Assembly: GCA_016927115.1 (NCBI GenBank)
Contig: JAFGNH010000080.1
Coordinates: 1,492 to 65,491 of the forward strand
Direction: 5' to 3'
Length of the DNA stretch: 64,000 nucleotides
DNA from: Anaerolineales bacterium
Lineage (GTDB): Bacteria > Chloroflexota > Anaerolineae > Anaerolineales > E44-bin32
The first letter of the stretch is position 1, and the number at the start of each line of letters is the position of its first letter. Below, one piece after another: positions 28,236 through 44,683 of the stretch. The notes beneath the pieces are model-generated. The model was given only the letters and a program-made list of their open reading frames with translations. It searched no databases and had not been told where the DNA came from. The translations under genes were made by a program, and so were the position numbers.

Positions 28236-29030
28236 TTGAACGATCAATTATCAGCGCGTGAACGACGTGACCTGATCGCACGGCATGTCCATGAACGCCG
28301 CCGGGTTCAGGTTACAGAATTAATGGAAGAATTCGGTCTGACGGATACCTCCATTCGCCGGGATCTTACCATCCTGGAAGATAAAGGGCTCATCCGCCGG
28401 GTTCATGGCGGTGCTGTTTCCACCAATGAAGGCCTGCATAGTTCTGTTCTGGAAGACCGTATTTTGCAGCATGGGCTCGAAAAACGCAAAATCGGAGCTG
28501 CCGCTGCACAGTATATTCTGCCTCACGAGGTAATTTTCCTGGACACAGGCTCAACGGTACTGCACGTGGCGCGCAGTATTCCGGATTCAATCAAACAGCT
28601 TGGTTCACTGCGGATTGTCACCAATTCAACTTTACTTCTGGATGAAATCGGGATGTGGGCAACCCCCAATCTGATCCTGCTAGGCGGAATTTTCCTTCCA
28701 GATCACTGGGCGACTGTGGGCCCGGAAGTTCTGGATGCTCTAAAGCAGTATTCGGCACACCATGCTTTCCTCAGCTGTGATGGGTTGACACTGGAGGGCG
28801 GGATTACAACTGCTCACCCGCTCATCGCCCAGGCCGAGCGGGAAATGGCAAACCGCTCCGAGCAAGTTATTGTTCTCGCCGACCACAGCAAGCTTGGCCG
28901 ATCCGGTTTTGTTCCTATCATGCCCGTATCAGAAATTGATATTCTCATTACTGATTCCGGGGCATCTGAAGAGATGGTTGCTGAACTGTGTGGCAGGGGG
29001 GTTGAGGTTGTTGTTGTCCCGATGGGATGA
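28236..29030 (+). CDS. DeoR-family transcriptional regulator
   Basis: The N-terminal HTH is VQVTELMEEFGLTDTSIRRDLTILEDKGLIRRVHGGA. The C-terminal half is a DeoR sugar-phosphate-binding domain. It has a TTG start. Confidence 0.85.
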   Translation: MNDQLSARERRDLIARHVHERRRVQVTELMEEFGLTDTSIRRDLTILEDKGLIRRVHGGAVSTNEGLHSSVLEDRILQHGLEKRKIGAAAAQYILPHEVIFLDTGSTVLHVARSIPDSIKQLGSLRIVTNSTLLLDEIGMWATPNLILLGGIFLPDHWATVGPEVLDALKQYSAHHAFLSCDGLTLEGGITTAHPLIAQAEREMANRSEQVIVLADHSKLGRSGFVPIMPVSEIDILITDSGASEEMVAELCGRGVEVVVVPMG

Positions 29031-29473
29031 AATCAGTTCCAGATAATGTACAGCAGCAGTTTGCTTCCATCTTTCCTTCAGCCTGCCAGGGGATACGGGT
29101 TCTGCAACTGCTGCGGAAATAGTATCCCAACCCCAAAGCCGGGCGAGCAGGGTAAAGATGAATTTATCAGATCACCCCTGGGGGACTTTTTCCTCTGAGC
29201 TTTCAGCGGCACGGCAAACTTTCACACCAGCAGTCCCGCCATATTAACAATACGTTTTCTGTATCCTTCGTCAGGCCGGTATTCGGCTATTTTTTTCCCC
29301 TGGATTTCCTTCTGGAATTTTTTGTGAATACGGTGTTTGCGGACACTATTTCGCAGTTTGATAATGGGGGATAATTATTCTTTTTCGACCCTGGAGGAGA
29401 ATTCTCCAGACAATCTGCTGTATGATGTCAGGTAAAGTGTGGGTACATGTGAGCTTTTGAATAAGGAGGGTAG

Positions 29474-30099
29474 AATTTTCTTACGAATGCCACAATGATA
29501 AGCAGGAATCCAGAAGGAGAGATTAGCGCAAACGTGGCAGTCCTTATCAAAGTGACCATTTTGCAGCAGCAGGGAAAACGAAAGATCTTACTGGAAGATT
29601 CCCCTCAGAAAAAATCTAAAACTGCCAGGGAAACGTGCTTCTACCGGGACTGATTGACACTCATGTGTACAAGGCTCAGGCGTTGATCCGGGAGATGTGT
29701 ATGGTAAGCTATCTGGCAAAACTGCGTGTGCAAGAGCCAACTATGGTGCCTGCAGAAGCAGTTTTGGAGATGGCGACGATCAATGGGTCGAAAGCGATGG
29801 GGTTGGAAGGTCAGATCGGCTCTAACGAGGTTGGTAAGAAGGCCGACTTTATCATTATCGATATGGATAAACCGCATCTTACACCGGCTCCGGATCCTGT
29901 CTCGACAATTGTGTATGCCGCCCATGGCAGCGATGTGGATACCGTGGTCATCGATGGAAGGTCGGTGATGAAACATCGTGAAGTACAAACGTTGGATGAG
30001 CAGTCTATTTTATCTGATGCCCGCAGGCGTTTCCCGGAAGTGAAAAAGCGGGGTGGACTTGATATCAGCCCGCGCTGGCCTGTGGTGCAGCTGTCGTAG
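29474..30099 (+). pseudogene. Decayed amidohydrolase (MtaD/SsnA/cytosine-deaminase-like) gene: frameshifted N-terminus plus a large internal deletion
   Basis: One frame (29474..) reads NFLTNATMISRNPEGEISANVAVLIK, the N-terminal beta-sandwich of metal-dependent amidohydrolases. It is preceded by a TAG and lacks a start codon. A second frame (29635..30099) reads VLLPGLIDTHVY (a degenerate HxH motif), then only about 25 residues later reaches the C-terminal AVLEMATINGSKAMGL...GKKADFIIID...VDTVVIDGRSVM. The total is about 200 codons. Confidence 0.55.
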
Positions 30100-30121
30100 A
30101 ATCTCCAGAAAAAGTAATCAA

Positions 30122-30156
30122 CGCTCTGTTTTAGCTTTACCAGCCAATACAGAGCG
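30122..30156. terminator. Hairpin between convergent genes (possible bidirectional terminator)
   Basis: cgctctgt (30122..30129) pairs with acagagcg (30149..30156). On the minus strand it is followed by a T-rich stretch. It lies downstream of the last gene of the nine-gene operon. Confidence 0.35.
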
Positions 30157-30213
30157 CTGATGTTTCCCCGGGATTCAGCTGTAGTTGCTATGTACCAGAG
30201 ATCAAGGGACAGC

Positions 30214-30402
30214 TTAGACAATCCCTACACAGCTAAGGAAGAACCAGATCATAAAGGGGGCACCGGTGGAGAGAGCCGTCAGGAGGAACGCTGCCAGCGG
30301 CTGATTGTGTTTTCTGTAGATCAGCCTGGATAGAACGCCCAGGCAGATCAGCAGAATCAGCAGTTCCAGGATTATTAATAAAGGCGGTATTTGCATCATC
30401 AT
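30214..30402 (-). CDS. Small membrane protein (about 62 aa, 2 TM helices)
   Basis: I shortened the 123-aa ORF to the ATG at 30402 (MMMQIPPLLIILELLILLICLGVL...), which lies 2 nt after the upstream stop. The rest of the long ORF overlaps the upstream gene. Confidence 0.45.
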   Translation of the reverse strand: MMMQIPPLLIILELLILLICLGVLSRLIYRKHNQPLAAFLLTALSTGAPFMIWFFLSCVGIV

Positions 30403-30404
30403 GA

Positions 30405-30875
30405 CTATCCTCCCAGCAGAAGAAAGAGCAGTGTCCACACAGCAGCTGAAGCGAGTATGGTGCCTGCGAAACGCCGCCGGCTGTCCAGCTTGCAGCGATG
30501 CCGCAGCACTGCTGCAAACAACACCCCACCCCCCAGGTTGACCAGGAGCAGTCCCCAGAACCCTATGAAGAGTTCCATAAACCACGCTGCAGGAAGGATC
30601 ATAAAGCTGAAGATCAACGTAACCCAGAAAGGGCTTTTCCAGCCGGGGGTATCAGTCTCCGGTGGTTCTGATATTTCTTCCATATCAGCGAAACTCACGC
30701 TGGATGGTGTCGGGAAGGCGGCAGGATCAAGCTGCGTGGGTGCCTGCGTATTGAAGGATGAATCTGCAGGCAGTTCTTCTGTTGAAGACAGTTTTTTTCC
30801 ACAAAACCCGCAGAAAACGGCGTCGGAAGGAATTGCACTCCTACAGAAAGGGCAGAAATGCTGAGCTTGCTTCAT
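30405..30875 (-). CDS. Zinc-ribbon membrane protein
   Basis: 156 aa. It has an N-terminal CPFC-x11-CGFCG zinc ribbon, an acidic linker, then 3-4 TM helices. Confidence 0.7.
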   Translation of the reverse strand: MKQAQHFCPFCRSAIPSDAVFCGFCGKKLSSTEELPADSSFNTQAPTQLDPAAFPTPSSVSFADMEEISEPPETDTPGWKSPFWVTLIFSFMILPAAWFMELFIGFWGLLLVNLGGGVLFAAVLRHRCKLDSRRRFAGTILASAAVWTLLFLLLGG

Positions 30876-30927
30876 GATCGTTTCTCCATTACAGAACTCA
30901 TTTCCTGTTCACAGCGGGCTGCAGTTC

Positions 30928-32547
30928 TTATTCTGCCTGCTGCTGAATGTCTGAACTGATGAACCGGCGGGCCAGTGTATGGGCAGAAAAGTACATTGCC
31001 AGGGTTGTAACAAGCGGTGTGAGCCAGATCCATATTTCGAACCATACGTCTCCCAGGCTGAAACCGAAATTGAATCTGCTGAATTCGATAAGGTAATTTC
31101 CAACGGGAGTGGCCAGAGCGAAAGCGGCCCCCCAGAAAAGACCCAGCCAACCAGCCAGTTTCCAATCAGGTTTACGGGGGTTCAACAGGACAACAGTGCC
31201 TGCAGCTGACAGTCCCATGCATAAGAATGACACCAGAGACCAGGACATGTTGGGAGGCAGGTGCCAGCTCCATTCCACGCCGAGCCAGACACGAAGCATG
31301 GACAGGACTACCCACAGCAGCACAGTGCCGCCCATCAGCGGAAGGCTGATCCGGGTGAACTGGCGGATGGCAATCAGTGTGAAGATGCCACCGATGAGGC
31401 CCATAGCAGCGAAAGGCCATACATAATGCATATCAGTTAAGGCAAAGAGTGAGGTGATAACAAGCTCTGCCAGAGCCCAGCCGAGGAAAACCAGGCCAAG
31501 GCTGCTCCATAGTCGCCTGGTGTCGGGCTTTTTCTGCTCTTTTTCAGCAGCCAGTGAGTCGTTCAAAAGCCAGACCAGAAAGGCCCCCAGGAGTATTCCC
31601 ATAAGACCGTACGCTACAAGCGAACCAACATGGATAGCGCGTGCTCTGATACGAAACAGGGGAAACCAGCCGGAGAGCAGGATATACGCAAGGATGAACA
31701 TTCCTGTTATCCCGGTTGCCAACCAGCTGAGTCCCAATCCGAGTGCTTTGCCCCACTGCCGGGACCTGCCGAAGAGGAACAAGCCAAGTACAAGCCCTGC
31801 AACGCCTGGAATCGCGCCTTCGAACAGCATGGATCGCAGCTCCCAGTTAAAATACATTAATGAGTAGCCAATGTTGATCATTGCATACCAGAGAAATGTA
31901 AGGATCAACGTGCCTGCTGCTGCCTGCCACCAGTGTGTCAACCAGCCGTAAAGCCTGAGCAGGATGCAAATTACCCCGCTTGAAAAAAAGCCTAGTACAG
32001 TAAAGAACAGGACAAGGTCGAGGGCAACAATTTGCTTATGGGCCAGGTAGCCTGCAGCACTGCCCAGCATGGTTCCAAGGCCGGTGATCAGTACAATCCA
32101 TCCCGGCATAACCCCCGGTTTTACCGGGGTGCTTTTACGTTCTTTCTTGCGCCGCAGCTCACGCAGTTCCTTCTCCGGAGCTGTCTGCTTCTTCTCCGAT
32201 TTTGATTTTTCCAGTGCATGCCCGCATTCGATGCAGAAGCGTGCATCCACCATATTCATTTTTCCGCACTGCGGGCAGACGGTTCCACCCTGCAGTGATG
32301 GTGGAGGTGCTTCCTCCATCACCTGGGTTGGTGTATCTGCACGATCGATCCGTGTGACTGCATCCATATCAATATCGGGAGGAGAGGCTCCGGCCGGTGG
32401 GGTTTCTGATTGGGCCGGCTGCTGATCTAGTGTTTCTGTATCTGCGTCTATTCCGGGTATTTCCGATGAGGGCGAAAGCCGGGCTCCGCAGTATCCGCAG
32501 AACAGCTTGTCATCCGGGATTTCCTTGTTGCAGTTTGGGCATATCAT
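30928..32547 (-). CDS. Double zinc-ribbon polytopic membrane protein
   Basis: 539 aa. It has CPNC-x11-CGYCG and CPQC-x11-CIECG ribbons, a basic linker (RELRRKKERK), then about 12 hydrophobic helices. Confidence 0.75.
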   Translation of the reverse strand: MICPNCNKEIPDDKLFCGYCGARLSPSSEIPGIDADTETLDQQPAQSETPPAGASPPDIDMDAVTRIDRADTPTQVMEEAPPPSLQGGTVCPQCGKMNMVDARFCIECGHALEKSKSEKKQTAPEKELRELRRKKERKSTPVKPGVMPGWIVLITGLGTMLGSAAGYLAHKQIVALDLVLFFTVLGFFSSGVICILLRLYGWLTHWWQAAAGTLILTFLWYAMINIGYSLMYFNWELRSMLFEGAIPGVAGLVLGLFLFGRSRQWGKALGLGLSWLATGITGMFILAYILLSGWFPLFRIRARAIHVGSLVAYGLMGILLGAFLVWLLNDSLAAEKEQKKPDTRRLWSSLGLVFLGWALAELVITSLFALTDMHYVWPFAAMGLIGGIFTLIAIRQFTRISLPLMGGTVLLWVVLSMLRVWLGVEWSWHLPPNMSWSLVSFLCMGLSAAGTVVLLNPRKPDWKLAGWLGLFWGAAFALATPVGNYLIEFSRFNFGFSLGDVWFEIWIWLTPLVTTLAMYFSAHTLARRFISSDIQQQAE

Positions 32548-32618
32548 GATAGTCTCTTCTCCTGATTAAAATCTGTAAATCACACCGGTTCCTGCTGCCG
32601 GATTCCATATTCTATTTA

Positions 32619-34034
32619 TCAGAATTCTATACCAATTGTGCCGTCAGTTTTGATAAACATGTCACCGCCTTCAAAATCCGGCCGGCTGCCGTCGTGCCAT
32701 ACCATTGTGCCATCCCCTAAAACTTCATCAGGCGGCGGGATTTCTGGGCGGGTATCGTAGCTGCTGTAGTCGGAATCTCCGCTGCCCTGTCGGTCTTCGG
32801 CGTCGATGATCATGTCTATCGGAATAGCTGAAGCAGGCAGAGCCGGGATCTCGCCAGGTTCACCATCAGAAATATCACCTGCAGGGGGAGTGTAATCGTC
32901 CTGGATCATATCAATCGGGATGATATCAGCAGGAAGGACGTTTACAGGATACTCTTCGTCATCCGCAGTACTTCTCCTGTCACTATCCTTGACAGTATCT
33001 CCACCACTGAGATAAGAATCGGCGACAGAAGCGCCAATGGGGACAATAACCTGCAAGGAGCTTAATACCAGATCACCCAAGCCGGCGAAGGTGCGCATGG
33101 TGGGGAAAGTCAGTTTCTCTCCTGTTAGTTCCTCTGCCGTCTCTGCAAGGATCTCATCTGTCAGGGCTGTGTTTGGATCGAGGTTTTTAAGCCGGATCTG
33201 ATTCTCAGAAAGCTCTGGTGCAGCGCGGTCAAGGTTATCAGATCCCATATCTGATGCGGATCCGGATGAGGTTTCAGGAGTGCCGGGATTTTCCTGGCCA
33301 GTTTCGATTTCCGATGAATCCGGAGCAGGTATTGCAGCAGTTTCAAGAGGCTGCTGTGCTGCCCCGCCGCTGTTTTGTACCACAAATAGACCGGATTCGC
33401 TCTTAAGTACAAGGGGCGGGATCGTGGCTTCAAGGACAACAGAAAGGGGTTCTGCACCTGACTCAAGGGTGGGGATATCCAGGGTCTGTCCCGGGAAAAT
33501 CGTACCAGGGTTGTCACCGATAATACTTCGGTTGGCTTCGTGGATCAGCGGCCATAGTTCGGCGCGGCCGTAATAGCGCAGTGCCAGGCTGGACAGCATC
33601 TCACCCTCGGCGACCGTATGTTCCGTCAGGATAGTTCGTTCCAGCTTGGGCGTTTCAGCCGATTCCGGGACAGTTTCATCCTGGCGGCTGAGGTAAATCT
33701 GTTCTACAGGACTGTTTTCACGAATAAGCTTTGATGCCTCGCTTTTTTCGAAAACGGGGATCTCCTTGAGCGGGTCCTGTAAGCCTTTAACAAACGCTTG
33801 CGGCTCTGTTTCGACTGAATCAAGGTATTCCTGGAAGGCGCCCTTGAAGGCTTCAACAAGGTTCTCTAAAAGTGATGTGAATAATGTCTGGATTGCTTCA
33901 GCGTTGGAGTAATCGAGGATTCTCTCCAGGAAAGAACCGGGTTCATGGTTCAAATCATCCAGCTCGCTGCTTTCCAGCGAACCGCTATCAAATGTCTCCA
34001 TCGGGTCAACAAGTGAAAAAATATCGTCGTTCAT
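32619..34034 (-). CDS. Leaderless LysM-domain protein (short paralog)
   Basis: The LysM domain is HTVAEGEMLSSLALRYYGRAELWPLIHEANRSIIGDNPGTIFPGQTLDIP. The N-terminal segment EPGSFLERILDYSNAEAIQTLFTSLLENLVEAFKGAFQEYL is homologous to the N-terminus of the 1096-aa protein. The protein ends in GTIGIEF and has no signal peptide. I preferred the ATG at 34034 (AGGA upstream). The ORF-track GTG at 34058 is an alternative. Confidence 0.8.
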   Translation of the reverse strand: MNDDIFSLVDPMETFDSGSLESSELDDLNHEPGSFLERILDYSNAEAIQTLFTSLLENLVEAFKGAFQEYLDSVETEPQAFVKGLQDPLKEIPVFEKSEASKLIRENSPVEQIYLSRQDETVPESAETPKLERTILTEHTVAEGEMLSSLALRYYGRAELWPLIHEANRSIIGDNPGTIFPGQTLDIPTLESGAEPLSVVLEATIPPLVLKSESGLFVVQNSGGAAQQPLETAAIPAPDSSEIETGQENPGTPETSSGSASDMGSDNLDRAAPELSENQIRLKNLDPNTALTDEILAETAEELTGEKLTFPTMRTFAGLGDLVLSSLQVIVPIGASVADSYLSGGDTVKDSDRRSTADDEEYPVNVLPADIIPIDMIQDDYTPPAGDISDGEPGEIPALPASAIPIDMIIDAEDRQGSGDSDYSSYDTRPEIPPPDEVLGDGTMVWHDGSRPDFEGGDMFIKTDGTIGIEF

Positions 34035-34089
34035 CTTTCTTTCCTTTGTTCGCTCCACCTTGCATGTGAAACAAAGAGTGCGAAACCGA

Positions 34090-34824
34090 CTATATTGCAG
34101 GTGCCTCCTCTTTTTTCTGGCTGAGATGGCGGATCAGGAGCTGGTTGGCAGCCTGGAACTGTTTCAGTTCCTCAGATGGGAATGGGAACCGTGCGTTCGC
34201 CATACCCAGGACCAGCAGGCAATATGCCAGGTTACCCAGATGAGCTGATGAAATGTAGGCCTGGGTGATCCCCAGCGAACGCCAAAGATGAGCTAACGCG
34301 AATCGCCAGGTTGTTTGCAGCGGATCCTGCTCTTTTTCCGGCTTTGCGGCGTTTTCTTCCAGCATCTGATGCAGGAGCGAGTAGTCCGGATGGCTGATGA
34401 GCACGAAGTGCCCGTAGCGGCAGGGAGCTGCACAGTATTGGCAGCCCCGGGATTTCCTGAGGCGGTTCTGTTCGCTTGATCGACCGGGTGAACCGGCCAG
34501 GAGCGCCATCAAGGTGCTGAATACCCAGGCAGCACGTGGAGACTGGTGGGCAAGCCGGGCTGAGTGCGTGAGAGTTCCTGCAAACCTCTCATTGGGAGTC
34601 TGCTTTGCCAGGTAGAATTCGATGATTTTTTGGCAGGCCTCGGGAACTGTTTCAGCAAAGTATGCTGGAGTTTTCAATCCGGCGCGCTGAGCCAGTGCCT
34701 GGCGCAGCGGTCCTCCGGCCTGTTTGAAGTTATAGATATGCTCCGGCGGGCAGAAAGACAGAAGGTGCAGATAACTCGCTGTTTGCTGCAATCCCTGGGG
34801 AAGATGTTTTTCTGTTTGAGTCAT
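34090..34824 (-). CDS. Cys-rich protein of unknown family (paralog of 38237..38953)
   Basis: 244 aa with AGGAGG upstream. Blocks conserved with its paralog are SYLHLLSFCPPE, RGCQYCAAPCRYGHFVLIS and HLGNLAYCLLVLGMANARFPFP. Confidence 0.7.
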   Translation of the reverse strand: MTQTEKHLPQGLQQTASYLHLLSFCPPEHIYNFKQAGGPLRQALAQRAGLKTPAYFAETVPEACQKIIEFYLAKQTPNERFAGTLTHSARLAHQSPRAAWVFSTLMALLAGSPGRSSEQNRLRKSRGCQYCAAPCRYGHFVLISHPDYSLLHQMLEENAAKPEKEQDPLQTTWRFALAHLWRSLGITQAYISSAHLGNLAYCLLVLGMANARFPFPSEELKQFQAANQLLIRHLSQKKEEAPAI

Positions 34825-34882
34825 ATTTTTCCTCCTCTTAACGCTGTGGTGGAGTCCGAATGAACAGGTCCAACCGGTTTTG

Positions 34883-37800
34883 TTAGAACTCGATAGTCAC
34901 ACCACCGGGTTCCCCGCCGGTTTGAAGGAATTCACGGAGTTCTCCCGAAGGAATCCAGTCATCTTTGATCATGCCGCGCTGGTACAGCTCCTGCATTCGA
35001 TCCAGGCGATTGTCTCCGGCGCCGGCAGTGGTCTGCAGTTTGAAATCGAAATTGATATTAACCAGGTCTTGAAGGCCGAGTTGGAGAAGATCGTCACGAT
35101 TGAGGATATCGTCGCGATTGAGGATGTCATCACGGTTGAGGATATCCCAGCGAACCGTGGTGGGCAGATCAGCATAGTTGAGAATACCTCCCTGACTCGG
35201 GATGCAGATTTCTTTCAGGACTGAGGGCCAGGTTTCTGCGGATGGAAATGCTGCCTCCCGCAGGGAAGAATACAGGCTGGCGGGTATGGCCGATGCCGGG
35301 ATTGCTCCAGCGGCAACTTCCTGGCCGATAAAAATCTTCGTCCATGTGGTAAGCTGGTCGCCGGAAATGTTGTTCGCTATCTCCCTGTAGTCCGAAGTGC
35401 TGAGCCAGCTGAAATCCTTCTCCATCAGGGGAATATATTCGGTGGTGTTAACCCACTGGATCATTTCATTCCGGACACTGGCGGGGATGGCGGAGGCAGG
35501 GATGGCCTGGTTTCTGAGATCGTCAAAGAGCTCCCATTTCATACTGGCGGGAATGGCACTGGCTGGGATGGCACTGATTTTCTCGGCCAGAATGCTGGCG
35601 GGGATAGCGCGGGTGAACTCGTTCATGATGCTGGCGGGTATCGCCCGCGATCCGCCTTCACCGGCATTAAAAATTTCCACCATCAGGCTGGCTGGAATGG
35701 CGGAAGCCGGGATGGCGCTGGCAGGAATAGCGCGGGCAAGGGTTTCAAGCATACTGGCAGGGATTGCATCGGCGCTGAGCTCACCGGTATTCACCATGGA
35801 AATTAGGTCTGACGGACCCAGTGAATTCATCACACTGGCAATCTCTGACCGCAGGCTGGCCGGGATGGCGGAGGCCGGAATGGCTGATTGGATGTCCAGG
35901 AGGATGCTGGCGGGGATGGCGGAAGCTGGAATGGCAGAGGCTGGAATAGCACCAGCATCGATGTCTTTGAAAATCTCGACATATATACTGGCGGGAATTG
36001 CTGATGCCGGGATGGCCGACGCCGGGATGGCGCTGGCGGGTATGGCGCTGGCCGGTATTGCCTCGGCAATCGCCTGTAAAAGGCTGGCTGGAATAGCGGA
36101 AGCCGGGATGGCACTTGCCGGGATGGCCTGGGCCAGGTCCTGCAGGGCACTGGCGGGGATGGCTGAAGCCGGGATCGCTCCGTTTTCAATCCGGTTAAGG
36201 ACGGCTCCGAGGAAATCATCGCGGTTGAGAATATCATCTCGATTCAGGATATCATCGCGGTTGAGAATTTCCATCAGAACGTCAGGATCGAAGGCACCGG
36301 GGTTTACAGGATGGGCATACAGGTCCCCGGCTGCCAGCCGCTCCATCACACCATCGAAGAAGCCTGTGGGGATCTGGTCCAGGGGTACAGAGTTCAGGAT
36401 GTCTACCAGTTTTTCACTGGCGATTCCCTGCAGCAGGAAGGGTTCTTCGGCCGCGATCCGGCACAGCCGCTCATCGGGAAACAGCGAAAGGTATTCTGAG
36501 CTGCTCCAGTTCTTTGCCAGCCAACTGCTGGCGAGCAGCGGGTCCACAAGCGAATCAGTCATATCTGAAACGCTGATCCGTCCATCGTGCAGCGCCTGGG
36601 CGATCTGTTCGTACTGCTTAACCGGCAGCCATTCCGCGTCGTAATCACCCGAACTGATACCGGAGAGCAGGTCGTTCACATCGGCGGGAAGCTGCAGCTG
36701 GCCGCTATCATACAGGTCACGGGCGTAGGAGGGCAAAATCGATGGTTTCAGGCCGTGATTGAGCATCAGATCGTGTATATCCTCGCTGCTCAGCTGCTCA
36801 TCAAAGTACTCCCAGAACCCATCCTGCAGTAAGGCGCAGTTGTCGGGCAATAAAATATCACCTTCGCCGGTGCTGGCACAGGCGGTGATAAACGCACTGA
36901 GGGAATCCCTGTTCATCTGATCGAACGGCATGGCACCGGTCCACACGGCACGGGCGATCCCATCGAGCCTTTCAGGCGGCAGCTCGGAGGGCTGGATGTC
37001 TCCGGAAACAACTCGTTTCATAAAGTTACTTCCCATATCAGGAGCTTCATAGTCGGAAGCGCTGCGCGCCTCGTTGACCACGCCGGTGAGCCCGAAGATG
37101 GTCGTCTTTACACCTTCAGGCGCTTCGGCGGGCATATCGGCTGTATCTTTGGCGGCACCGCCTTCAGCCACTGCTGCAGAAGCACCCGCTTCCGCTGCTT
37201 CTGCACCCGCATCCGCATCCGCTCTATCGCCGGCGGCTTCAGCCGCTTTGCTGACTTCTTCACCCGGTTCGGCAGGCATTATTACCTGTGGTGCTTCAGC
37301 GACTCCACCAGTAACCGAAGCCCGCCCGGGATCCTGGGCAGGGATGGCAGGCGAATCTTCGTTGAAGTCAGGCATTGCATCGGCATCTGCTGGAGCGGTA
37401 TCCGAGACGGCTGCAGTACCAACTGCGGGAGCGGCAGCCTCCACGGGAGCGGCTGTATCTGCTGCTGGTGCAGTCTGCTCAGGGGGCTGGTAGGAAGCTG
37501 TCTCTACCGGCGTGTAGGTGCTCGGTGAGATCACTGTGCCCGGTCCGGGAGATGAGTCCAGTGGAGGGATCACAAATTCCTGCCCGGGATAAATCATGTT
37601 GGGGTTTTCACCAATGACAGCCTGATTGGCTTTATAAATCGCAGACCACATGGCTGCGTTTCCATAATAGTGCAGTGCAAGATGGGAGAGCGTTTCACCC
37701 TCAGACACAGTGTGTTCTGCTGCGGAGCTGGTTTCGACAGGTGTGCGCTGTTCACCCGAATCCGATACAGTACTGGAAGCAGAAGGTGTCTCTGTGAGAT

Positions 37801-38173
37801 GTGTGGATGATGCTCCGGTTGTTTCCACCATCTCCTTTTTAAACTCATCCAGCGCCTTGTCGACAAGTTCCTGGACCTCACTCTCACTGTACAGGTTTTC
37901 CTCATTCTGAAGCGGGGCTTCCAGTTCCTGCTGGAATGCCTCCGTATCGGTATGGACGATCGAGATATACTCCTGGTATGCGTCTTTGACTGCACCAGAG
38001 AGATTTTTTGCCAGGCTGACAAAGAAAGATTGAATGGCTTCAGCACTGACGTAGGAAAGGATGTTCTCAAGAACAGACCCCGGTTCCCTGACTGCCCGGT
38101 CGAGAGTTTCCAGGCCGGTTCCCATTTCTTCTGTAATTTTTGTGTCCTCAATGTGTTTATTCAAGTTGTCCAT
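34883..38173 (-). CDS. Leaderless LysM-domain giant protein with AIPAS and ILNRDD repeat arrays
   Basis: 1096 aa. It has an N-terminal domain shared with the 479-aa paralog, a LysM domain (37565..37714), an Ala/Pro/Glu-rich linker, a unique central domain, and then 27 perfect AIPAS units in 12 clusters bracketed by two ILNRDD triplets. It ends in GGVTIEF. No signal peptide or TM helix is present. Confidence 0.85.
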   Translation of the reverse strand: MDNLNKHIEDTKITEEMGTGLETLDRAVREPGSVLENILSYVSAEAIQSFFVSLAKNLSGAVKDAYQEYISIVHTDTEAFQQELEAPLQNEENLYSESEVQELVDKALDEFKKEMVETTGASSTHLTETPSASSTVSDSGEQRTPVETSSAAEHTVSEGETLSHLALHYYGNAAMWSAIYKANQAVIGENPNMIYPGQEFVIPPLDSSPGPGTVISPSTYTPVETASYQPPEQTAPAADTAAPVEAAAPAVGTAAVSDTAPADADAMPDFNEDSPAIPAQDPGRASVTGGVAEAPQVIMPAEPGEEVSKAAEAAGDRADADAGAEAAEAGASAAVAEGGAAKDTADMPAEAPEGVKTTIFGLTGVVNEARSASDYEAPDMGSNFMKRVVSGDIQPSELPPERLDGIARAVWTGAMPFDQMNRDSLSAFITACASTGEGDILLPDNCALLQDGFWEYFDEQLSSEDIHDLMLNHGLKPSILPSYARDLYDSGQLQLPADVNDLLSGISSGDYDAEWLPVKQYEQIAQALHDGRISVSDMTDSLVDPLLASSWLAKNWSSSEYLSLFPDERLCRIAAEEPFLLQGIASEKLVDILNSVPLDQIPTGFFDGVMERLAAGDLYAHPVNPGAFDPDVLMEILNRDDILNRDDILNRDDFLGAVLNRIENGAIPASAIPASALQDLAQAIPASAIPASAIPASLLQAIAEAIPASAIPASAIPASAIPASAIPASIYVEIFKDIDAGAIPASAIPASAIPASILLDIQSAIPASAIPASLRSEIASVMNSLGPSDLISMVNTGELSADAIPASMLETLARAIPASAIPASAIPASLMVEIFNAGEGGSRAIPASIMNEFTRAIPASILAEKISAIPASAIPASMKWELFDDLRNQAIPASAIPASVRNEMIQWVNTTEYIPLMEKDFSWLSTSDYREIANNISGDQLTTWTKIFIGQEVAAGAIPASAIPASLYSSLREAAFPSAETWPSVLKEICIPSQGGILNYADLPTTVRWDILNRDDILNRDDILNRDDLLQLGLQDLVNINFDFKLQTTAGAGDNRLDRMQELYQRGMIKDDWIPSGELREFLQTGGEPGGVTIEF
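35090..35143 (-). repeat. 3 x 18-bp in-frame repeat encoding ILNRDD-ILNRDD-ILNRDD (C-terminal copy)
   Basis: The units are atcgtcacgattgaggat, atcgtcgcgattgaggat and gtcatcacggttgaggat. They are identical as peptide and differ at synonymous sites. Confidence 0.9.
35276..36178 (-). repeat. Coding repeat region: 27 AIPAS pentapeptide units (15 bp each) in 12 clusters separated by short amphipathic spacers
   Basis: Read directly from the sequence. For example, gctggcgggtatggc reverse-complements to GCC ATA CCC GCC AGC, cgatgccgggattgc to GCA ATC CCG GCA TCG, and tgaagccgggatcgc to GCG ATC CCG GCT TCA. The cluster sizes are 2,3,5,3,2,1,3,1,1,2,2,2. Confidence 0.9.
36215..36268 (-). repeat. 3 x 18-bp in-frame repeat encoding ILNRDD-ILNRDD-ILNRDD (N-terminal copy)
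   Basis: The units are atcatcgcggttgagaat, atcatctcgattcaggat and atcatcgcggttgagaat. It lies immediately upstream (in protein terms) of the AIPAS region. Confidence 0.9.
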
Positions 38174-38236
38174 GAGTACCTCGAGCGTTCTTATTGGCAG
38201 ATGCAGTGTCAGTGGTGTGTGTTGGTTCCTGTCGGG

Positions 38237-38953
38237 TCAAACGTGTGCGGCGTTGGCCGGCCAGCCGGCAATCAGGGCCTGGTTCCACTCCTGAAAAGAA
38301 GCCAGTTCGGATTCGGGAAACGGGAGGCGGGATTTGGCCATGGCCAGAACCAGCAGGCAGTAGCTCAGGTTTCCCAGGTGGTACGGGCTGATGTACCCCT
38401 GCCGGGTTCCCAGAGTTCGCCACAGATGACTGGTAGTAAAAGACCAGGTGGCTTTGAGCGTGCCGCCGGGGTCCCTGCTGTTTTCGTGCTGCTCAAGCAG
38501 TTTCTGCAGCAGGGTGTATTCAGGCCGTGAAACGAGCACGAAAAATCCATAACGGCAGGGTGCCTGGCAAAACTGACAGCCGCGTGACGGGCGCAGCCGT
38601 TTGTTTTTTTCCGTCCGGGAGGGCAGGGAGCAGATGCGGTCCATCTGCTGTTGAAACAGATAGGCGGCTTCAGGGCTTTCCTGTGCAGTTTGTGCAGCCC
38701 GGCTTAAATCATTTTTTAGCTTTTGATCCGGGATGGGCAGGCGCTGGTGGAAAGCAGTGATACGGCGGCATGATTCAGGGATTGTGCGTGCGAAAAATTC
38801 CGCCTCCGGCAGGTCCGCCTGCAGAGCCAATCCACTGCGGAGAGGAAGGCCTGCCTGTGCAAGAGCATGAATCTGGTCCGGCGGGCAGAAGGAAAGAATG
38901 TACAGGTAGCTGATAGAGGCTTGTATTTCCTGCACGGTGAGAGAATCAGCCAT
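38237..38953 (-). CDS. Cys-rich protein of unknown family (paralog of 34090..34824)
   Basis: 238 aa with GGAG upstream. The conserved blocks are SYLYILSFCPPD, RGCQFCQAPCRYGFFVLVS and HLGNLSYCLLVLAMAKSRLPFP. Confidence 0.7.
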   Translation of the reverse strand: MADSLTVQEIQASISYLYILSFCPPDQIHALAQAGLPLRSGLALQADLPEAEFFARTIPESCRRITAFHQRLPIPDQKLKNDLSRAAQTAQESPEAAYLFQQQMDRICSLPSRTEKNKRLRPSRGCQFCQAPCRYGFFVLVSRPEYTLLQKLLEQHENSRDPGGTLKATWSFTTSHLWRTLGTRQGYISPYHLGNLSYCLLVLAMAKSRLPFPESELASFQEWNQALIAGWPANAAHV

Positions 38954-39004
38954 GGGGTTTTCTCCTTCAAACGATACGGTGGAGGCTGGTTATCGGGTGG
39001 TTCA

Positions 39005-41803
39005 CTACCGTTCCAGCCGCGGCATCGGTGTGTAGAATATTTTGGTCCAGGAGGGCATATCATCCTGGAAGCCTGCAATGATCGCCTGGCCGACTTTCAG
39101 GCGGGCGATGACTTCAGCCTGTTCTTCCTTGAGAGCCAGTGTGCCGGCCATGGTCTGGCGGTCATCAGCGGCGACAAGGCGATGAATGATCTTGAGATTG
39201 GTATTCTTGAGCGCATCGGGCACCAGTTTGGCAGGCACCTGGTCGATAATGGCAAGGCCCTGGCCGTAGGCACGTATTTCCGCGAGGATGTCGGCAAACA
39301 TCTCGCCCATCTTGGCTTGTGGGTTGGCACCGTAGGCAGTCTGAGGCGCCGCACGCAGGATGCGGTGCGCCTCTTCAAAGATGGCCAGGTGGCGCAGATC
39401 ATGCGATTCAGGGGACCCTTCCAGTTCATGCTGTGCCTGACGGTATTCGTACATGAAGTTCAGCAGCAGTGCCATGGTGAGGCACTTGTCGGCATCATCG
39501 CCCATCTGCTGCAGGTTGATTACGACCGGCCGGTCGAACAGGTCTGCCCAGGGGGTGGACTGCTGGCAGTTGAAGGTTTTTCCCTTCCAGCCGCGCAGCA
39601 GGCTGCCAATTCGTGTACGCAGGGCGGCGGTAATATTATCGGTGATACGCTGTTCGTACCCCTTGGATTTCACCAGATCAGAAATTCGATCATAGAGGTT
39701 TTCAAGAGTCGGGCAGCACACACCTGCCGGAGGCAGTTTATCCTGTAGCCATCCCTGGCTGTCATAGAGATCGACCAGGGCTTCTTCGAGAATGACGGGC
39801 AGGATCTCCTGCATCGGAAAGCTGGCGTTGAAGATAGACCGCAATCGGTCCAGGTGCGGCATCACCTGGGCTGTTGCATCCGGCAAACGGACAATGTCGA
39901 ACGGGTTAAGCTGCAGACTGTTGAGTTTCTCGCTGCCCCATTCCGTCCGTCCGGGCATATACACTGCTATTTTGCGATCAAAGGTGCCGGCCTGGTTATA
40001 GGCCAGTGCAAGCTGGACGTATTCCTCTTTCGCAGGTTCAATCACCATGAAGTTGACGTTTCGCTGCATCAGCTCTGAGATCAGCCGGCGGCAAGTATTG
40101 GATTTACCGCTGCCGGTGATTCCGGTGACGAAAACATGCCGCGTGAGTGAATTCAGATCCACTTCATAGGTGAGGTTCCCAACTTCTTCTCCGCCGTCCA
40201 GTATGGCGCCAAGCCGGATCGGATTTTCTTCCTTGCATATGGTGGGCGGGTTCAGGCTGAAACTGGCTGTGGGTTGAACAGGCAGCCCGGGCAGTTCACG
40301 CAGGGGAAGATTCGCGTACAGGGAGAGTTCTTCGGTGTTCAACAGAGTGGTCAGGTTTTCAAAGGCTTCCCCCAGCGGGTGGTGTACACGGTTTGCACTA
40401 TCCGGGGCGAACAGGCGCAGCGGAGGCTGTCGGAAAGCATCCAATGATACCTGGACTTGCCCATCCCAAACAGGATGCAGGTCATGGACCCGGATGGGTT
40501 CAAAGGCGCTTTTTTCACCGCTGACCAGGGCTTTCAGTTGTGATTGGGCCTGGGCGGTGGTTTCAGCCTGATCGCTCATGAGATACACCCCGACATTCCA
40601 GCAGCCCTTGCCGCGGGCAATTTCGAAGCGGGTGACGGTTTCCTGGAGAAGCTGTTCACAGGCTTCGGCGTGTTTGTTGAGGTATTCACGGCCGAAGGAA
40701 AGCGACTCGCTGGAGGATGTGCTTTCGGTGTCGGTGGTGCCGGCGGTCTCGCCGCGGGTCTGTCCGATTGAGCTTGAGGTGCCGCTGGAGGTGGAAGTAG
40801 AGGAAGAGGGCAGCAGCTGGCCGAACATACCCAGCATTCCCGATAGGGCGAAGCCACCCGCCAGCGGGATCATCAGCGCGCCGGCACCGGCCAAACCGAG
40901 TGCCTTCAACCCCTTCCCCACACCGCTGGAATCTGACAGAGCGGTTCCCAGGGCACCACGGCTGCGGCTTTCACTTGAACCGGTGGTGGTGCCCTCCGTC
41001 TCCGATGTAGAACTGCTGTAGCTGACAGAACGGGCGGAACTTTGGGAGGAACTGTCGCTGGTGCTGCGCTGAATGGTGGCTTTCGTAAAAGCGTGGATCT
41101 GGCTGGAAAGGGTACGGCAGTCGTGGATGATCTGGTTTACGCTGCTCTCAGGAACAGGATTGGCAAGTACCATGTACAGGTAGGGTTTACCGCGCAAGCC
41201 GCGCATGAACTGATCAAGGCTCTGGGGGTAGTCCGACGGTTTATCGGATTCGATGGGAGAAGGGATACCCGTGAACGAACGGGCAAAGCGGTATTCACTG
41301 AGAGGAATATGGATTTTACGGACGATCTCGTTGTAATCAGAAACGGCTTTAACCCTGGTCCCGGGCCAATTGGAACACAGGAACTGGCCGAGCTGGTCGG
41401 CAAACAGGCGCGGCTGCCCTCCCGGTGCTTGCGTCAGGATACCGATATAGATATCTGAGCGGAATCCATCGCTACTGATAAGGAACAGCAGGGAATAGCG
41501 CGGGTCGTGGCAGGCAGCAAGGGTGGTCTGGATGGCGCGCAGGTTCCTGGAGAAATCCTCGCTGACAGGCTGGCCAACCTGTTCCAGATGGAAAAAGGCC
41601 ACATCAGGAGGGGGAGGTGGTGCTTCCTCAAGCACACGGACATAGTTGGCGTCGAAGATGGGGCCGTCCAGATAGTTCCTGCTGAGAGCGAACAGCATTG
41701 CGCGTGAAATCAAGTCCCCGGTCGTGGTCAGCATTTCAACCGGAAGCTGATCCAATGGTTCCAGGTCTGTTGGGGCGGGTTCAATGGAGTGGTTCTCTGT
41801 CAT
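39005..41803 (-). CDS. HerA/FtsK-superfamily P-loop ATPase (DUF87-like) with a novel N-terminal domain and a Ser/Thr-rich, Gly-rich hydrophobic insert
   Basis: 932 aa. It has Walker A VTGITGSGKSNT, Walker B HLAIFEEAHRIL and the C-terminal NTNLKIIHRL. Residues ~246-369 (40697..41068) are Ser/Thr low complexity. They flank GLKALGLAGAGALMIPLAGGFALSGMLGMFGQLL, a probable membrane segment. Confidence 0.8.
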   Translation of the reverse strand: MTENHSIEPAPTDLEPLDQLPVEMLTTTGDLISRAMLFALSRNYLDGPIFDANYVRVLEEAPPPPPDVAFFHLEQVGQPVSEDFSRNLRAIQTTLAACHDPRYSLLFLISSDGFRSDIYIGILTQAPGGQPRLFADQLGQFLCSNWPGTRVKAVSDYNEIVRKIHIPLSEYRFARSFTGIPSPIESDKPSDYPQSLDQFMRGLRGKPYLYMVLANPVPESSVNQIIHDCRTLSSQIHAFTKATIQRSTSDSSSQSSARSVSYSSSTSETEGTTTGSSESRSRGALGTALSDSSGVGKGLKALGLAGAGALMIPLAGGFALSGMLGMFGQLLPSSSTSTSSGTSSSIGQTRGETAGTTDTESTSSSESLSFGREYLNKHAEACEQLLQETVTRFEIARGKGCWNVGVYLMSDQAETTAQAQSQLKALVSGEKSAFEPIRVHDLHPVWDGQVQVSLDAFRQPPLRLFAPDSANRVHHPLGEAFENLTTLLNTEELSLYANLPLRELPGLPVQPTASFSLNPPTICKEENPIRLGAILDGGEEVGNLTYEVDLNSLTRHVFVTGITGSGKSNTCRRLISELMQRNVNFMVIEPAKEEYVQLALAYNQAGTFDRKIAVYMPGRTEWGSEKLNSLQLNPFDIVRLPDATAQVMPHLDRLRSIFNASFPMQEILPVILEEALVDLYDSQGWLQDKLPPAGVCCPTLENLYDRISDLVKSKGYEQRITDNITAALRTRIGSLLRGWKGKTFNCQQSTPWADLFDRPVVINLQQMGDDADKCLTMALLLNFMYEYRQAQHELEGSPESHDLRHLAIFEEAHRILRAAPQTAYGANPQAKMGEMFADILAEIRAYGQGLAIIDQVPAKLVPDALKNTNLKIIHRLVAADDRQTMAGTLALKEEQAEVIARLKVGQAIIAGFQDDMPSWTKIFYTPMPRLER

Positions 41804-41830
41804 CAGGAAGCCTTTCAGCGATAGGCCGGC

Positions 41831-43402
41831 TCAGTCCTGAGCAAGCCGGTAGCGGATCGATCCGATGCGGATTTCATCTCCCTGGCGGAAGATGGTTGGC
41901 TGCTGTGGTGCAATACAGGCAGCGTTGAGATATGTTCCATTCGTGCTGCCCAAATCCACCAGGTAGAAAACCTCGCCATCTTTCCTGATTTCTGCATGGA
42001 AGCGGGAGGCCAGATCATCTTTGACCCAGACATCATTCCGGCTTTTCCTGCCGAGGGTTGTGATTCCTTTTATAAGCGGGTATTTCTCTCCGTTTTCCGA
42101 GACAAGATACCAGGCCTCCTGTTTGTTTTCGTCGGACGAGGCAAATGAAATGGTGGGCTGAGGTGCCGGGGTTTTTAAGGAAGAGCGGTTTTGTGAAATG
42201 CCGTATTCGAGTGCAACGCCTTTTACGACAATTTCCTCGGGGTTATCGGAGAGAAGGATTCGATCTTCGCCGAACTGATCGCGCAGGTGACGTACGATGG
42301 TAAACAGCTGTGAACCGCCACCCACCAGAACCACCTGATGGATATCCTCTATAGTGATTCCCATCGACTTGAGTGCGTTTGAGATCAGGTATTCAAAATC
42401 CGCAATCAGGTGGCGGGCGATACCCAGAAATGTGTCTTCCTCGAGCTGCACGGTGCTGCGAAATACGGAACCATCCCGCATAACCACGGTTATAGTACGC
42501 CTTGGTGTATGGAAGGTGCCGCTGGAGTTGAGCAGCTGGCGGCTCAGCGATTCTTTTAATTTACGGGCAGCATTACGCAGCGATATCAGTGCTGTGGGGT
42601 CATCTGCCAGAGCGTGTGCAGGAATTTCAAGTTTTTCAATGAGGTATTTTGCCAGTTCTGCATCATATAATCCGCCCCCGTGAGGTTCCCCGTAGTGGTG
42701 GGTGAATTCAATCTCTCCGGTCCGGGGATTGACTTTTCCGGCGACCATATCAGTTGTGCTTCCGCCGACATCAGCGATCAGGGTAAGGCCTTCAGGCCTG
42801 TCAGACTGCAGAAGTCCCTGGTGATACAGGCTGAGAATAGCTCCTTCAGGTTCCGGAATAAAGCGAATGCGTTCATGCATTGGTGGTTCGAAACAGGCAA
42901 GAATAATCTGTTTGAAGTCGTTAAGAATGCTGCCATCGTAGCCGAACTGCCAATAGACGGGATAGGCAAAGGAAAATCGGATCTGGTTGTTGAAAGGTTT
43001 GTTATACCATTTTTCTTCCTGAAGTTGATTCAAGACAGATTGCAGCAGCATACTGGTGTACGTCAGCGCCTGGTTATGCGTATAACGTTTCTGGTGCGGG
43101 AGGGGCGTTTTTTGCAAATGGGCTCCGATACATGGTTTGAAGTATTCGCGGATTCTTTCACGCACGTCCTCCTGGTCCATCTGTTGTGAAACGGTTTCGC
43201 CGTAGCTTTCAAGTGCTGTTCCGTCTGCGTTCATAAGCAGGGCGGCGGGGAGGTGACGGTCATAGAAGCTTGTGAGGGGGGAAGGCTGCGGATCGCTGAG
43301 CATATGAATGGAGTTTTGCTGGTGGAGATACTCCACGCGGTAAAGACGCCAGTTCGTTGCTCCACAGTCAAAGGCGAAAAGCGTTTCCTGTTGTCCGGTC
43401 AT
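41831..43402 (-). CDS. Hsp70/actin-fold ATPase fused to a C-terminal FHA domain
   Basis: 523 aa. The sugar-kinase/Hsp70/actin motifs are FAFDCGATNWR (phosphate-1), IADVGGSTTD (phosphate-2) and VVLVGGGSQ (adenosine). There is no Hsp70 substrate-binding domain. The C-terminal FHA is TLGRKSRNDVWVKDDLASRFHAEI...LVDLGSTNGTYLN...GDEIRIG. Confidence 0.8.
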   Translation of the reverse strand: MTGQQETLFAFDCGATNWRLYRVEYLHQQNSIHMLSDPQPSPLTSFYDRHLPAALLMNADGTALESYGETVSQQMDQEDVRERIREYFKPCIGAHLQKTPLPHQKRYTHNQALTYTSMLLQSVLNQLQEEKWYNKPFNNQIRFSFAYPVYWQFGYDGSILNDFKQIILACFEPPMHERIRFIPEPEGAILSLYHQGLLQSDRPEGLTLIADVGGSTTDMVAGKVNPRTGEIEFTHHYGEPHGGGLYDAELAKYLIEKLEIPAHALADDPTALISLRNAARKLKESLSRQLLNSSGTFHTPRRTITVVMRDGSVFRSTVQLEEDTFLGIARHLIADFEYLISNALKSMGITIEDIHQVVLVGGGSQLFTIVRHLRDQFGEDRILLSDNPEEIVVKGVALEYGISQNRSSLKTPAPQPTISFASSDENKQEAWYLVSENGEKYPLIKGITTLGRKSRNDVWVKDDLASRFHAEIRKDGEVFYLVDLGSTNGTYLNAACIAPQQPTIFRQGDEIRIGSIRYRLAQD

Positions 43403-43864
43403 GCAGGTTCCCTATGAAGAAAGTTACAATGATGAACGACAATCTGCTGCAAATCTCTCATAACTGTCCGGAAATTTCGGTTGTTGTTCTTGACCAGATT
43501 TTGTGTGGCGTAGCAGGGTACCTGCAATAATAATCAACCTGATGGATGAAGGGGAGACGGTGGGTAGTGAGCCCGGGGTATAGGGTTGTATGCAATTCAG
43601 TAAGGCCACGCGTTTTACCTGGATAAACGACAATCAATCTATTCCGATCTGAATTAGTACGTATGGGCAAAATCATAGTCCTGTTTGGTGTAGATGGCAA
43701 ATTCAGGATACCTGATTTTTACCGAATAGTGGTTTTAGTGAAGGTTTTGTGTAAGGTTGTGAGGAATCCTGGAAAAAAATATATCAGATATTGGTTGAAT
43801 TAAACGAAATGAACAAAATAAATTGTGGGTCTGCTGTGAGGTGGAATCTGCCTTTCATGGGGAG

Positions 43865-43902
43865 AAAAAAGGATTCAGGCACTTGATTTTATGCCTGAAT
43901 CC
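43865..43902 (-). terminator. Rho-independent terminator of the DsbA-like gene
   Basis: A perfect 10-bp stem, ggattcaggc (43871..43880) with gcctgaatcc (43893..43902), and a 12-nt loop. It is followed on the minus strand by TTTTTT (43865..43870). Confidence 0.6.
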
Positions 43903-43927
43903 GGGTTATTAGGTGAGGATGTTTAGG

Positions 43928-44683
43928 TTACTCGGCGGACAGTTCGCTGTCAATAATGGCGTAAAACTGTTCCAGCGGTGCAGCCCCTATAAGCGGAATA
44001 CCATTGATGAAGAAGACCGGTGTGCCGCGGGCGCCAAGTGCAGCCACGAATTCGGCATCTGCAATGATTTCGCTATTGTGGGTCTCACCGGCGAGGCATT
44101 CACTGAATTGATTCGCGTCCAGGTTCAGGTCTTCGGCATATTGAGTATATGCTTCTGTTCCCAGTGCCATTCGGCCGGAATACAGCAGATCGTGATATTC
44201 CCAGTACATATCCTGATCGCCGGCACAGTTGGCTGCAACAGCGGCATCAAGAGAGGTTTGACCGAGGATTGGAAAATCCCGGTAGACAAACTGGATCTGC
44301 CCCGGATACGTGTCCAGAAGGGCCTGGAAGGATTCAGTGTGAAACTTGCGGCAGTAACCGCAGTTATAATCGCCGAATTCAATAAGCTGAATGGGCGCAT
44401 CAGACGGGCCAAACACGGGATCATCGTCGGCATCGACAGGGAACCGCTGTATTTCACCTGGTTCGGTTGTGGGGATTACAGCAGCGGCGTTCTCTGCAGG
44501 AGCCTGCGCGGTCTGCTCTCCGGTAGAATCCATACCCCAGATTGCGTAACCGATGAGTACACCAATCAACAGAGCAACAGGCAGCATCAGGTACAGCTTC
44601 CGGTTTGGATCAGGTGCAGGAGCTTCGTTGGGTGCCTCGTGATCCGTTTCAAGCAAATTAAGGTCTTCTTTGTATTCTTCCAT
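43928..44683 (-). CDS. DsbA-family thiol:disulfide oxidoreductase, membrane-anchored
   Basis: It has an N-terminal TM helix (LMLPVALLIGVLIGYAIW), the thioredoxin-fold active site FGDYNCGYCRKFH, and a C-terminal GTPVFFING. Confidence 0.8.
   Translation of the reverse strand: MEEYKEDLNLLETDHEAPNEAPAPDPNRKLYLMLPVALLIGVLIGYAIWGMDSTGEQTAQAPAENAAAVIPTTEPGEIQRFPVDADDDPVFGPSDAPIQLIEFGDYNCGYCRKFHTESFQALLDTYPGQIQFVYRDFPILGQTSLDAAVAANCAGDQDMYWEYHDLLYSGRMALGTEAYTQYAEDLNLDANQFSECLAGETHNSEIIADAEFVAALGARGTPVFFINGIPLIGAAPLEQFYAIIDSELSAE

Follow-up and report, generated by a model that had tools for sequence, protein, structure and literature searches.

A HerA-centred gene system of Anaerolineales with proposed adaptors and clients

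In the threonine-phosphorylation pathway of the type VI secretion system (T6SS; PpkA–Fha1–PppA), a transmembrane (TM) Ser/Thr kinase, an FHA protein and a PP2C phosphatase regulate the secretion machine. The type VII secretion system (T7SS; ESX and Ess, the latter T7SSb) combines an FtsK/HerA-family motor with FHA domains and phospho-regulation, leaderless substrates bearing a targeting domain, dedicated chaperone-like adaptors that follow an EspG-like pairing logic, and substrate families with variable C-termini. HerA/VirB4/VirD4-like ATPases of the FtsK-HerA type are used by the archaeal Ced/Ted systems, which import DNA, and by HerA-NurA, which acts in repair. The NTPase-centred conflict systems of multicellular bacteria, which bring NTPases, HSP70, FHA domains and Ser/Thr kinases together in multicellular or filamentous lineages, are centred on MoxR-vWA or GTPases, HerA being mentioned in passing (Kaur et al., eLife 2020, PMC7159879). 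Features of these systems recur in an operon of nine minus-strand genes at 30214-43402 of the window, the 64,000-nucleotide stretch of an Anaerolineales metagenome-assembled genome (MAG) analysed here (contig JAFGNH010000080.1). Its conserved core encodes a fusion of an Hsp70-like ATPase domain and an FHA domain (Hsp70FHA), a HerA/FtsK-superfamily ring ATPase (HerA) and a Cys-rich protein, here called the adaptor, after which come proteins with a common N-terminal domain, here called clients and N-domain, respectively. On the basis of gene content, synteny, domain calls, adaptor/N-domain co-occurrence and a predicted adaptor-client complex, the operon is tentatively read as an ATP-driven, phospho-regulated adaptor-client system of Anaerolineales, the full model with export of the clients being given somewhat less than an even chance.

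Relation to described systems

Pfam, NCBIfam and PADLOC searches place the nine proteins in none of the known systems for secretion, conjugation or defence, in agreement with an earlier note on this DNA, which could name no described system of this composition; its parts list also agrees with the domain searches. Since literature searches likewise yielded no account of such a set of genes, the system is regarded as undescribed. Its novelty lies in the system itself, the mechanism proposed for it being of a familiar kind.

A T7SS was rejected on several grounds. HerA has one ATPase domain, no clear TM segment and no FHA domain (EccC/EssC have two to three ATPase domains, a TM anchor and N-terminal FHA domains); no WXG100 protein is encoded in the operon, and none of the nine proteins matches EccB, EccD, EccE or MycP, or EsaA, EssA or EssB, in Pfam or NCBIfam. 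In contrast to the T7SS, the FHA domain is carried here by a separate protein with an Hsp70 nucleotide-binding domain (NBD), and the adaptor has an unrelated and possibly novel fold. The WXG100 genes of the same genome lie elsewhere (contigs C140:24692-27993 and C27:47333-47587), in a separate T7SS-like cluster. A type IV secretion system (T4SS) or conjugation apparatus was also rejected, as the VirB4-like and TraB matches of HerA fall far below the cut-offs and no other T4SS component, such as the VirD4 coupling protein, a VirB6/VirB8-10 channel or a relaxase, was found with Pfam or NCBIfam. The archaeal Ced/Ted systems were rejected on the single ATPase, where Ced has both CedB (VirB4-like) and CedD (VirD4-like), a CedD score of 85.9 bits against a cut-off of 600, the lack of pilins and the lack of conservation of DZR539, the multi-TM protein of this operon; unlike Ced/Ted and HerA-NurA, the operon has neither a CedA multi-TM channel nor NurA, and its clients are N-tagged proteins, not DNA. 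The likeness to the T6SS pathway lies in a TM Ser/Thr kinase that stands beside an FHA protein, here one that may gate an ATPase-driven machine, the two genes being adjacent in relatives. However, no T6SS core (VgrG, Hcp, TssB/C, ClpV) is present, and the FHA domain forms one protein with an Hsp70-like ATPase domain.

A conflict or defence system, against phages or in kin conflict, ranks first among the rival explanations. In such a system the membrane kinase would sense a threat, FHA proteins would relay the signal, HerA would act on invading DNA or trigger a response, and the N-domain proteins would be diversified effectors. HerA ATPases occur in many defence systems, the PADLOC HerA and mad8 models match HerA, and the kinase–FHA–HSP70 theme is that of the NTPase conflict systems (PMC7159879). 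The patchy, multi-copy distribution, a decaying second copy in the same genome and the varying C-termini of the clients, all described below, also agree with it. However, PADLOC finds neither a complete system nor a partner gene, and the known HerA-based systems (HerA-SIR2, HerA-DUF4297, MADS, Shango) were rejected because HerA alone is matched and none of the remaining eight proteins is recognized as a partner. The clients examined carry no nuclease, SIR2, TIR, protease or other toxin/effector domain, their LysM and repeat domains look structural rather than toxic, and, in contrast to the NTPase conflict systems, the present one has HerA at its centre, together with a novel adaptor and a family of N-tagged clients. 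A role in conflict is regarded as unlikely.

Conserved core, adaptors and clients

HerA was used to retrieve the relatives, 25 loci that all belong to Anaerolineales MAGs. Every locus with enough sequence (21+ loci in ~15 MAGs) has Hsp70FHA first, then HerA and then the Cys-rich adaptor, so that the synteny in related genomes that had been set beforehand as a test is found for the core. The adaptor is followed by one to eight N-domain clients, which differ between loci. The nine-gene unit proposed by the earlier note is thereby reduced to a conserved core of Hsp70-FHA, HerA and Cys-rich protein, with clients that vary by locus. In the window, where all nine genes lie on the minus strand, the core consists of Hsp70FHA (41831-43402, 523 amino acids (aa)), HerA (39005-41803, 932 aa) and, directly after HerA, the first adaptor, Cys238 (38237-38953). 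The first client, LysM1096 (34883-38173), comes next, and a second pair follows, made up of the adaptor Cys244 (34090-34824), a paralog of Cys238 with 48% identity, and the client LysM479 (32619-34058). A second copy in the same genome (contig C136:1-10500) is partly decayed. It keeps Hsp70FHA, HerA, an intact adaptor, a small FHA protein and an N-domain protein of 493 aa, but another adaptor gene is frameshifted and a HerA fragment contains stop codons. Several relatives carry two or three copies of the system.

Neither Cys238 nor Cys244 has a Pfam or NCBIfam match. The AlphaFold2 model of Cys238, made with 45 homologs, is all-helical and confident (pLDDT 91.5, pTM 0.89), and its fold has no significant match in Foldseek-PDB, ESM Atlas or VIA-align against 48,161 PDB representatives (best Z 5.4, TM ≤0.35). 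As far as this model goes, the fold may be new. The cysteines C126, C129 and C133 (CxxCxxxC) are invariant and C23 and C199 nearly so, which suggests a putative metal site. The adaptor family is narrow. A remote-homology profile search of 1.84 billion proteins gave 60 cluster representatives, all of one architecture or fragments, and no distant relatives or fusions.

The two clients of the window have in common their first ~100 aa (35-41% identity), including the N-domain, a conserved, acidic region of ~70 aa with the motif QPEE…HEPG…QAEAIE. In an alignment of the clients (A2) its consensus reads MxELExxQPEExLE…QALxDATHEPGARxEETQxFEQAEAIExALxEA and the C-termini are variable. LysM1096 carries the variant REPG, its motifs lying at about residues 20-60, and LysM479 carries HEPG. 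The N-domain is followed by a Pfam LysM domain in LysM1096 (154-203, 3.9e-4) and in LysM479 (147-196, 2e-4), the latter protein ending in a Pro-rich, acidic tail. No signal peptide or TM anchor was found in either protein by sequence scan. In LysM1096 the pentapeptide AIPAS is also repeated ~30 times, and DILNRDD repeats occur in two groups of three; these repeats are degenerate at the codon level, and Tandem Repeats Finder detects short DNA arrays only.

Adaptor paralogs directly precede N-domain clients both in this operon and at the loci of relatives, and a predicted complex of Cys238 with the N-domain of LysM1096 fits this genetic pairing, each window adaptor directly preceding its own client. 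The complex has an ipSAE of 0.85, against 0.00 for the best control; the runs agree, and the pLDDT of the partner is ~74. The tightest predicted contacts are made by N-domain residues 44-52, with the invariant A44/E45 in the QAEAIE helix, to adaptor helices 146-153 and 201-220. The adaptor thus probably recognizes the client N-domain specifically. The pairing of accessory and cargo proteins that the earlier note had described is strengthened by this docking and by the co-occurrence of the N-domain family with the system. Further N-domain proteins of the same genome are encoded away from both copies, on contigs C85 (909 aa), C100 and C201, as would be expected for a recognition signal acting in trans.

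Among 401 Anaerolineales genomes, the adaptor was found in 25 and the N-domain profile in 26; 23 genomes have both, two the adaptor only (one weak), three the N-domain only (one weak) and 373 neither. The overlap spans four families (Fisher p ~5e-32, a value that overstates the association because the genomes are related, not independent), and the adaptor carriers belong mainly to one family (17/48). In a second, phylum-wide sample of 401 Chloroflexota genomes, the 400 other than the present one lack both adaptor and N-domain. The system is conserved yet patchy in filamentous Chloroflexota (Anaerolineales), and from the overlap the N-domain behaves like a signal confined to genomes that have the machine. 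The genes are taken as a new family on two properties, their conserved order and the co-occurrence of adaptor and N-domain.

The clients of relatives differ widely. At L007 and L009 they are LysM proteins of 1468-1766 aa. At L001, L005 and L023 they are short N-domain proteins adjoining three radical SAM enzymes, which looks like a module for a ribosomally synthesized and post-translationally modified peptide (RiPP) riding on the system. The radical SAM trios lie at L001:8109-11631, L005:15106-18607 and L023:10782-14310, and the neighbouring short N-domain proteins end in PGxxGG(F/N)IY; at L001:12623-14218 there is an N-domain protein with a Frankia_peptide (PF14407) RiPP-precursor domain. These three loci, with their enzyme trios and short N-domain proteins after the core, and the N-domain protein ending in the Frankia_peptide domain favour the third-ranked rival, in which the N-domain would be a RiPP-type leader, the Cys-rich protein its recognition element and HerA the exporter of modified products, the LysM proteins being secondary. 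However, the window contains no modifying enzymes, its clients are LysM proteins of 479 and 1096 aa rather than peptides, and the adaptor is all-helical, not a winged helix like the RiPP recognition element. As an account of the whole system, this reading is improbable and the least likely of those considered.

ATPases, phospho-signalling and export

Hsp70FHA matches HSP70 (1.1e-18) and FHA (4.4e-19) in Pfam, with an Hsp70/actin-like NBD region at residues 180-405 (HSP70 profile match at 165-377) followed by the FHA domain at 448-514. The FHA domain is canonical, with its G-R, SxxH and NGT motifs all present. The match to the NBD of DnaK/HscA is weak (NCBIfam DnaK, 57.8 bits against a cut-off of 822), and no substrate-binding domain was found with Pfam or NCBIfam, the FHA domain occupying its place. 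Its 367 homologs are all in Anaerolineae/Chloroflexota records. A genuine Hsp70/DnaK chaperone was rejected, as only the NBD matches, the FHA domain replaces the substrate-binding domain and the operon is without DnaJ and GrpE. FtsK/HerA ATPases work as translocases rather than as folding chaperones. These points also bear on the rival ranked second, a cytoplasmic chaperone or assembly machine in which the Hsp70-like and HerA ATPases with the adaptor would fold or assemble large repetitive clients in the cytoplasm or at the membrane, with no translocation, any export taking place by other means. It would account for the presence of an Hsp70-family ATPase, for clients that are large, repetitive and leaderless, and for the lack of a conserved channel, but the Hsp70 protein has an FHA domain in place of a substrate-binding domain and the partner ATPase is of a class that translocates rather than folds. 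It is considered quite unlikely, more so than a role in conflict.

HerA consists of an N-terminal domain of ~300 aa, a Ser/Thr-rich linker and a single ATPase domain, which is matched by Pfam DUF87/HerA central (531-742, 9.6e-13), FtsK_SpoIIIE (1.1e-5) and AAA motifs. In NCBIfam it hits CedD, HerA, VirB4-like and 'serine-rich anaerobe' (ser_rich_anae_1) models, weakly, at superfamily level and far below cut-offs. Its homologs (n=196) are all in Anaerolineae/Chloroflexota records. Over 24 homologs, the Walker A motif GITGSGKS, intact in the window protein, is invariant, as are the Gly motif GGPFLLSGMLGMFGQL and a Walker B motif (window 40598-40642) of the form hhhhEEAH, in which Glu stands where Asp is usual (24/24). 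In the Ser/Thr-rich linker (~245-360), the composition is conserved and the sequence is not; the linker is a candidate site for the phosphorylation that the FHA domain would read. The AlphaFold model of N-terminal residues 1-250 is of low confidence (pLDDT 51.7), and an ESM Atlas feature search with this region gave unnamed, uninformative clusters only.

In many relatives, a Ser/Thr kinase gene is arranged head-to-head with Hsp70FHA. The kinase has a Pkinase domain, a TM helix and a Cys-containing TPR-like domain, the last being extracellular in the predicted topology. Such divergent TM kinases lie upstream of Hsp70FHA at L003:4381-7712, L004:3677-7782, L018, L022 and L025. Beyond this kinase gene, there are a secreted or membrane protein of ~490 aa with the motif DxAPPExPP and, at L004 and L018, a conserved multi-TM partner of ~200 aa. 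At four loci (L021:10768-11409, L008:12410-13051, L011:4054-4695, L020:2799-3464), the adaptor is immediately followed by a small protein with an FHA domain and an OmpR-type winged helix (Trans_reg_C), which is likely a phospho-regulated transcription factor of the system. PP2C phosphatases are encoded somewhere in the genomes of relatives. No kinase adjoins the operon copy in the window, and for this reason a Ser/Thr kinase encoded at 14299-15522 on the minus strand, whose C-terminus carries double zinc ribbons (Pkinase 2.2e-37, DZR 8.6e-14), is a candidate for the kinase in this genome that serves its FHA reader. The kinase and the canonical FHA domain fit kinase/FHA gating as in the T6SS threonine-phosphorylation pathway. 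The phospho-Thr signalling suggested in the earlier note is plausible in view of the canonical FHA domain, the conserved Ser/Thr-rich linker of HerA and the TM kinase and FHA-OmpR regulator beside the core in relatives.

In the mechanism proposed here, the TM Ser/Thr kinase found in relatives would sense an extracellular cue and phosphorylate threonines, plausibly in the Ser/Thr-rich linker of HerA, and Hsp70FHA and the FHA-winged-helix regulator would each read the phospho-Thr marks through their FHA domain. Each adaptor would bind the acidic N-domain of its cognate client and pass the client to HerA, the probable motor, and Hsp70FHA, whose ATPases would unfold or move it. LysM domains bind peptidoglycan outside the membrane. 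Since the clients are leaderless and LysM acts there, they are most naturally taken to be destined for the cell envelope, which the LysM clients would most likely reach by a Sec-independent route. ATPase action on the clients, gating by phosphorylation and client export are the steps that we infer. In its most novel form, a dedicated Sec-independent export system of Anaerolineales without kinship to known secretion systems, in which HerA translocates leaderless N-tagged clients (LysM cell-wall proteins and others), each with its own novel-fold adaptor, and membrane kinase and FHA readers switch it on, the model is possible but rather unlikely, although it is given a better chance than any of the rivals.

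Several observations weigh against export. No conserved membrane channel was found among relatives, and for this reason export stays a conditional part of the model. The three membrane genes at the end of the operon, DZR539 (30928-32547), ZnR156 (30405-30875) and pep62 (30214-30402), do not accompany the system in any relative examined, and the sole partial match to them is the zinc ribbon of a kinase at L007. They were therefore rejected as a conserved channel, and the tail appears to be a local addition. DZR539 has a double zinc ribbon (Pfam, 4.6e-13) and ~8-10 TM helices by hydrophobicity scan, ZnR156 a zinc ribbon and 2-3 TM helices, and pep62, of 62 aa, two TM segments. The zinc-ribbon membrane proteins of the earlier note thus stand, with fewer helices than its ~12 and 3-4, respectively. 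HerA has no clear TM segment and no FHA domain of its own, and the hydrophobicity scan showed no clear TM segment in Hsp70FHA either. For the envelope export machine envisaged in that note, the membrane part is accordingly not supported. What is conserved is Hsp70FHA, HerA, the adaptor and the N-domain clients, joined in relatives by the kinase. The ATPase activity of HerA is plausible but uncertain, because its Walker B motif has EE rather than the usual DE. The complex of Cys238 with the N-domain is a model rather than a measurement, and the varied C-termini of the clients (LysM, repeats, RiPP-like with radical SAM) fit cytoplasmic processing equally.

If the export model is correct, the Chloroflexota, a large, little-studied phylum with filamentous members, would place large surface and cell-wall proteins by an undescribed ATP-driven machine that has a targeting signal and an adaptor fold of its own and is controlled by kinase and FHA proteins. 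This would add to the few routes for leaderless proteins across membranes and constitute a fourth 'leaderless' secretion logic beside the type III secretion system (T3SS), T6SS and T7SS. The adaptor and the ~70-aa N-domain form a testable module with an interface predicted to specific helices, and their strict co-occurrence across independent families would be a clear instance of a code for recognition that spreads together with the machine it serves. That Chloroflexota should have a client system centred on HerA and coded by adaptors is unexpected to specialists.

Operon boundaries and host genome

The nine co-directional genes and their eight intergenic gaps (27, 51, 63, 58, 31, 71, 52 and 2 nt), as given in the earlier note, are exact in the sequence. 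The ~520-bp non-coding leader reported there measures 525 bp. Downstream, where that note placed a hairpin, no strong terminator was found below 30214, and an Rfam search of 29000-44500 gave no match. The leader contains a candidate sigma70-like promoter (43672-43700, minus strand), a weak site with a 10/12 match in a consensus scan, and the terminator of an upstream DsbA-like gene (43871-43902, minus strand), with a 12-bp GC stem and a T-run, which forms the upstream boundary of the operon; the DsbA-like gene itself lies at 43928-44683 on the minus strand. The host is an Anaerolineales MAG of 4.8 Mb in 204 contigs, 92% complete with 6.75% contamination. The genes flanking the operon are ordinary and encode a DeoR regulator, an ABC transporter, HEAT-repeat proteins and an Fe-S oxidoreductase.

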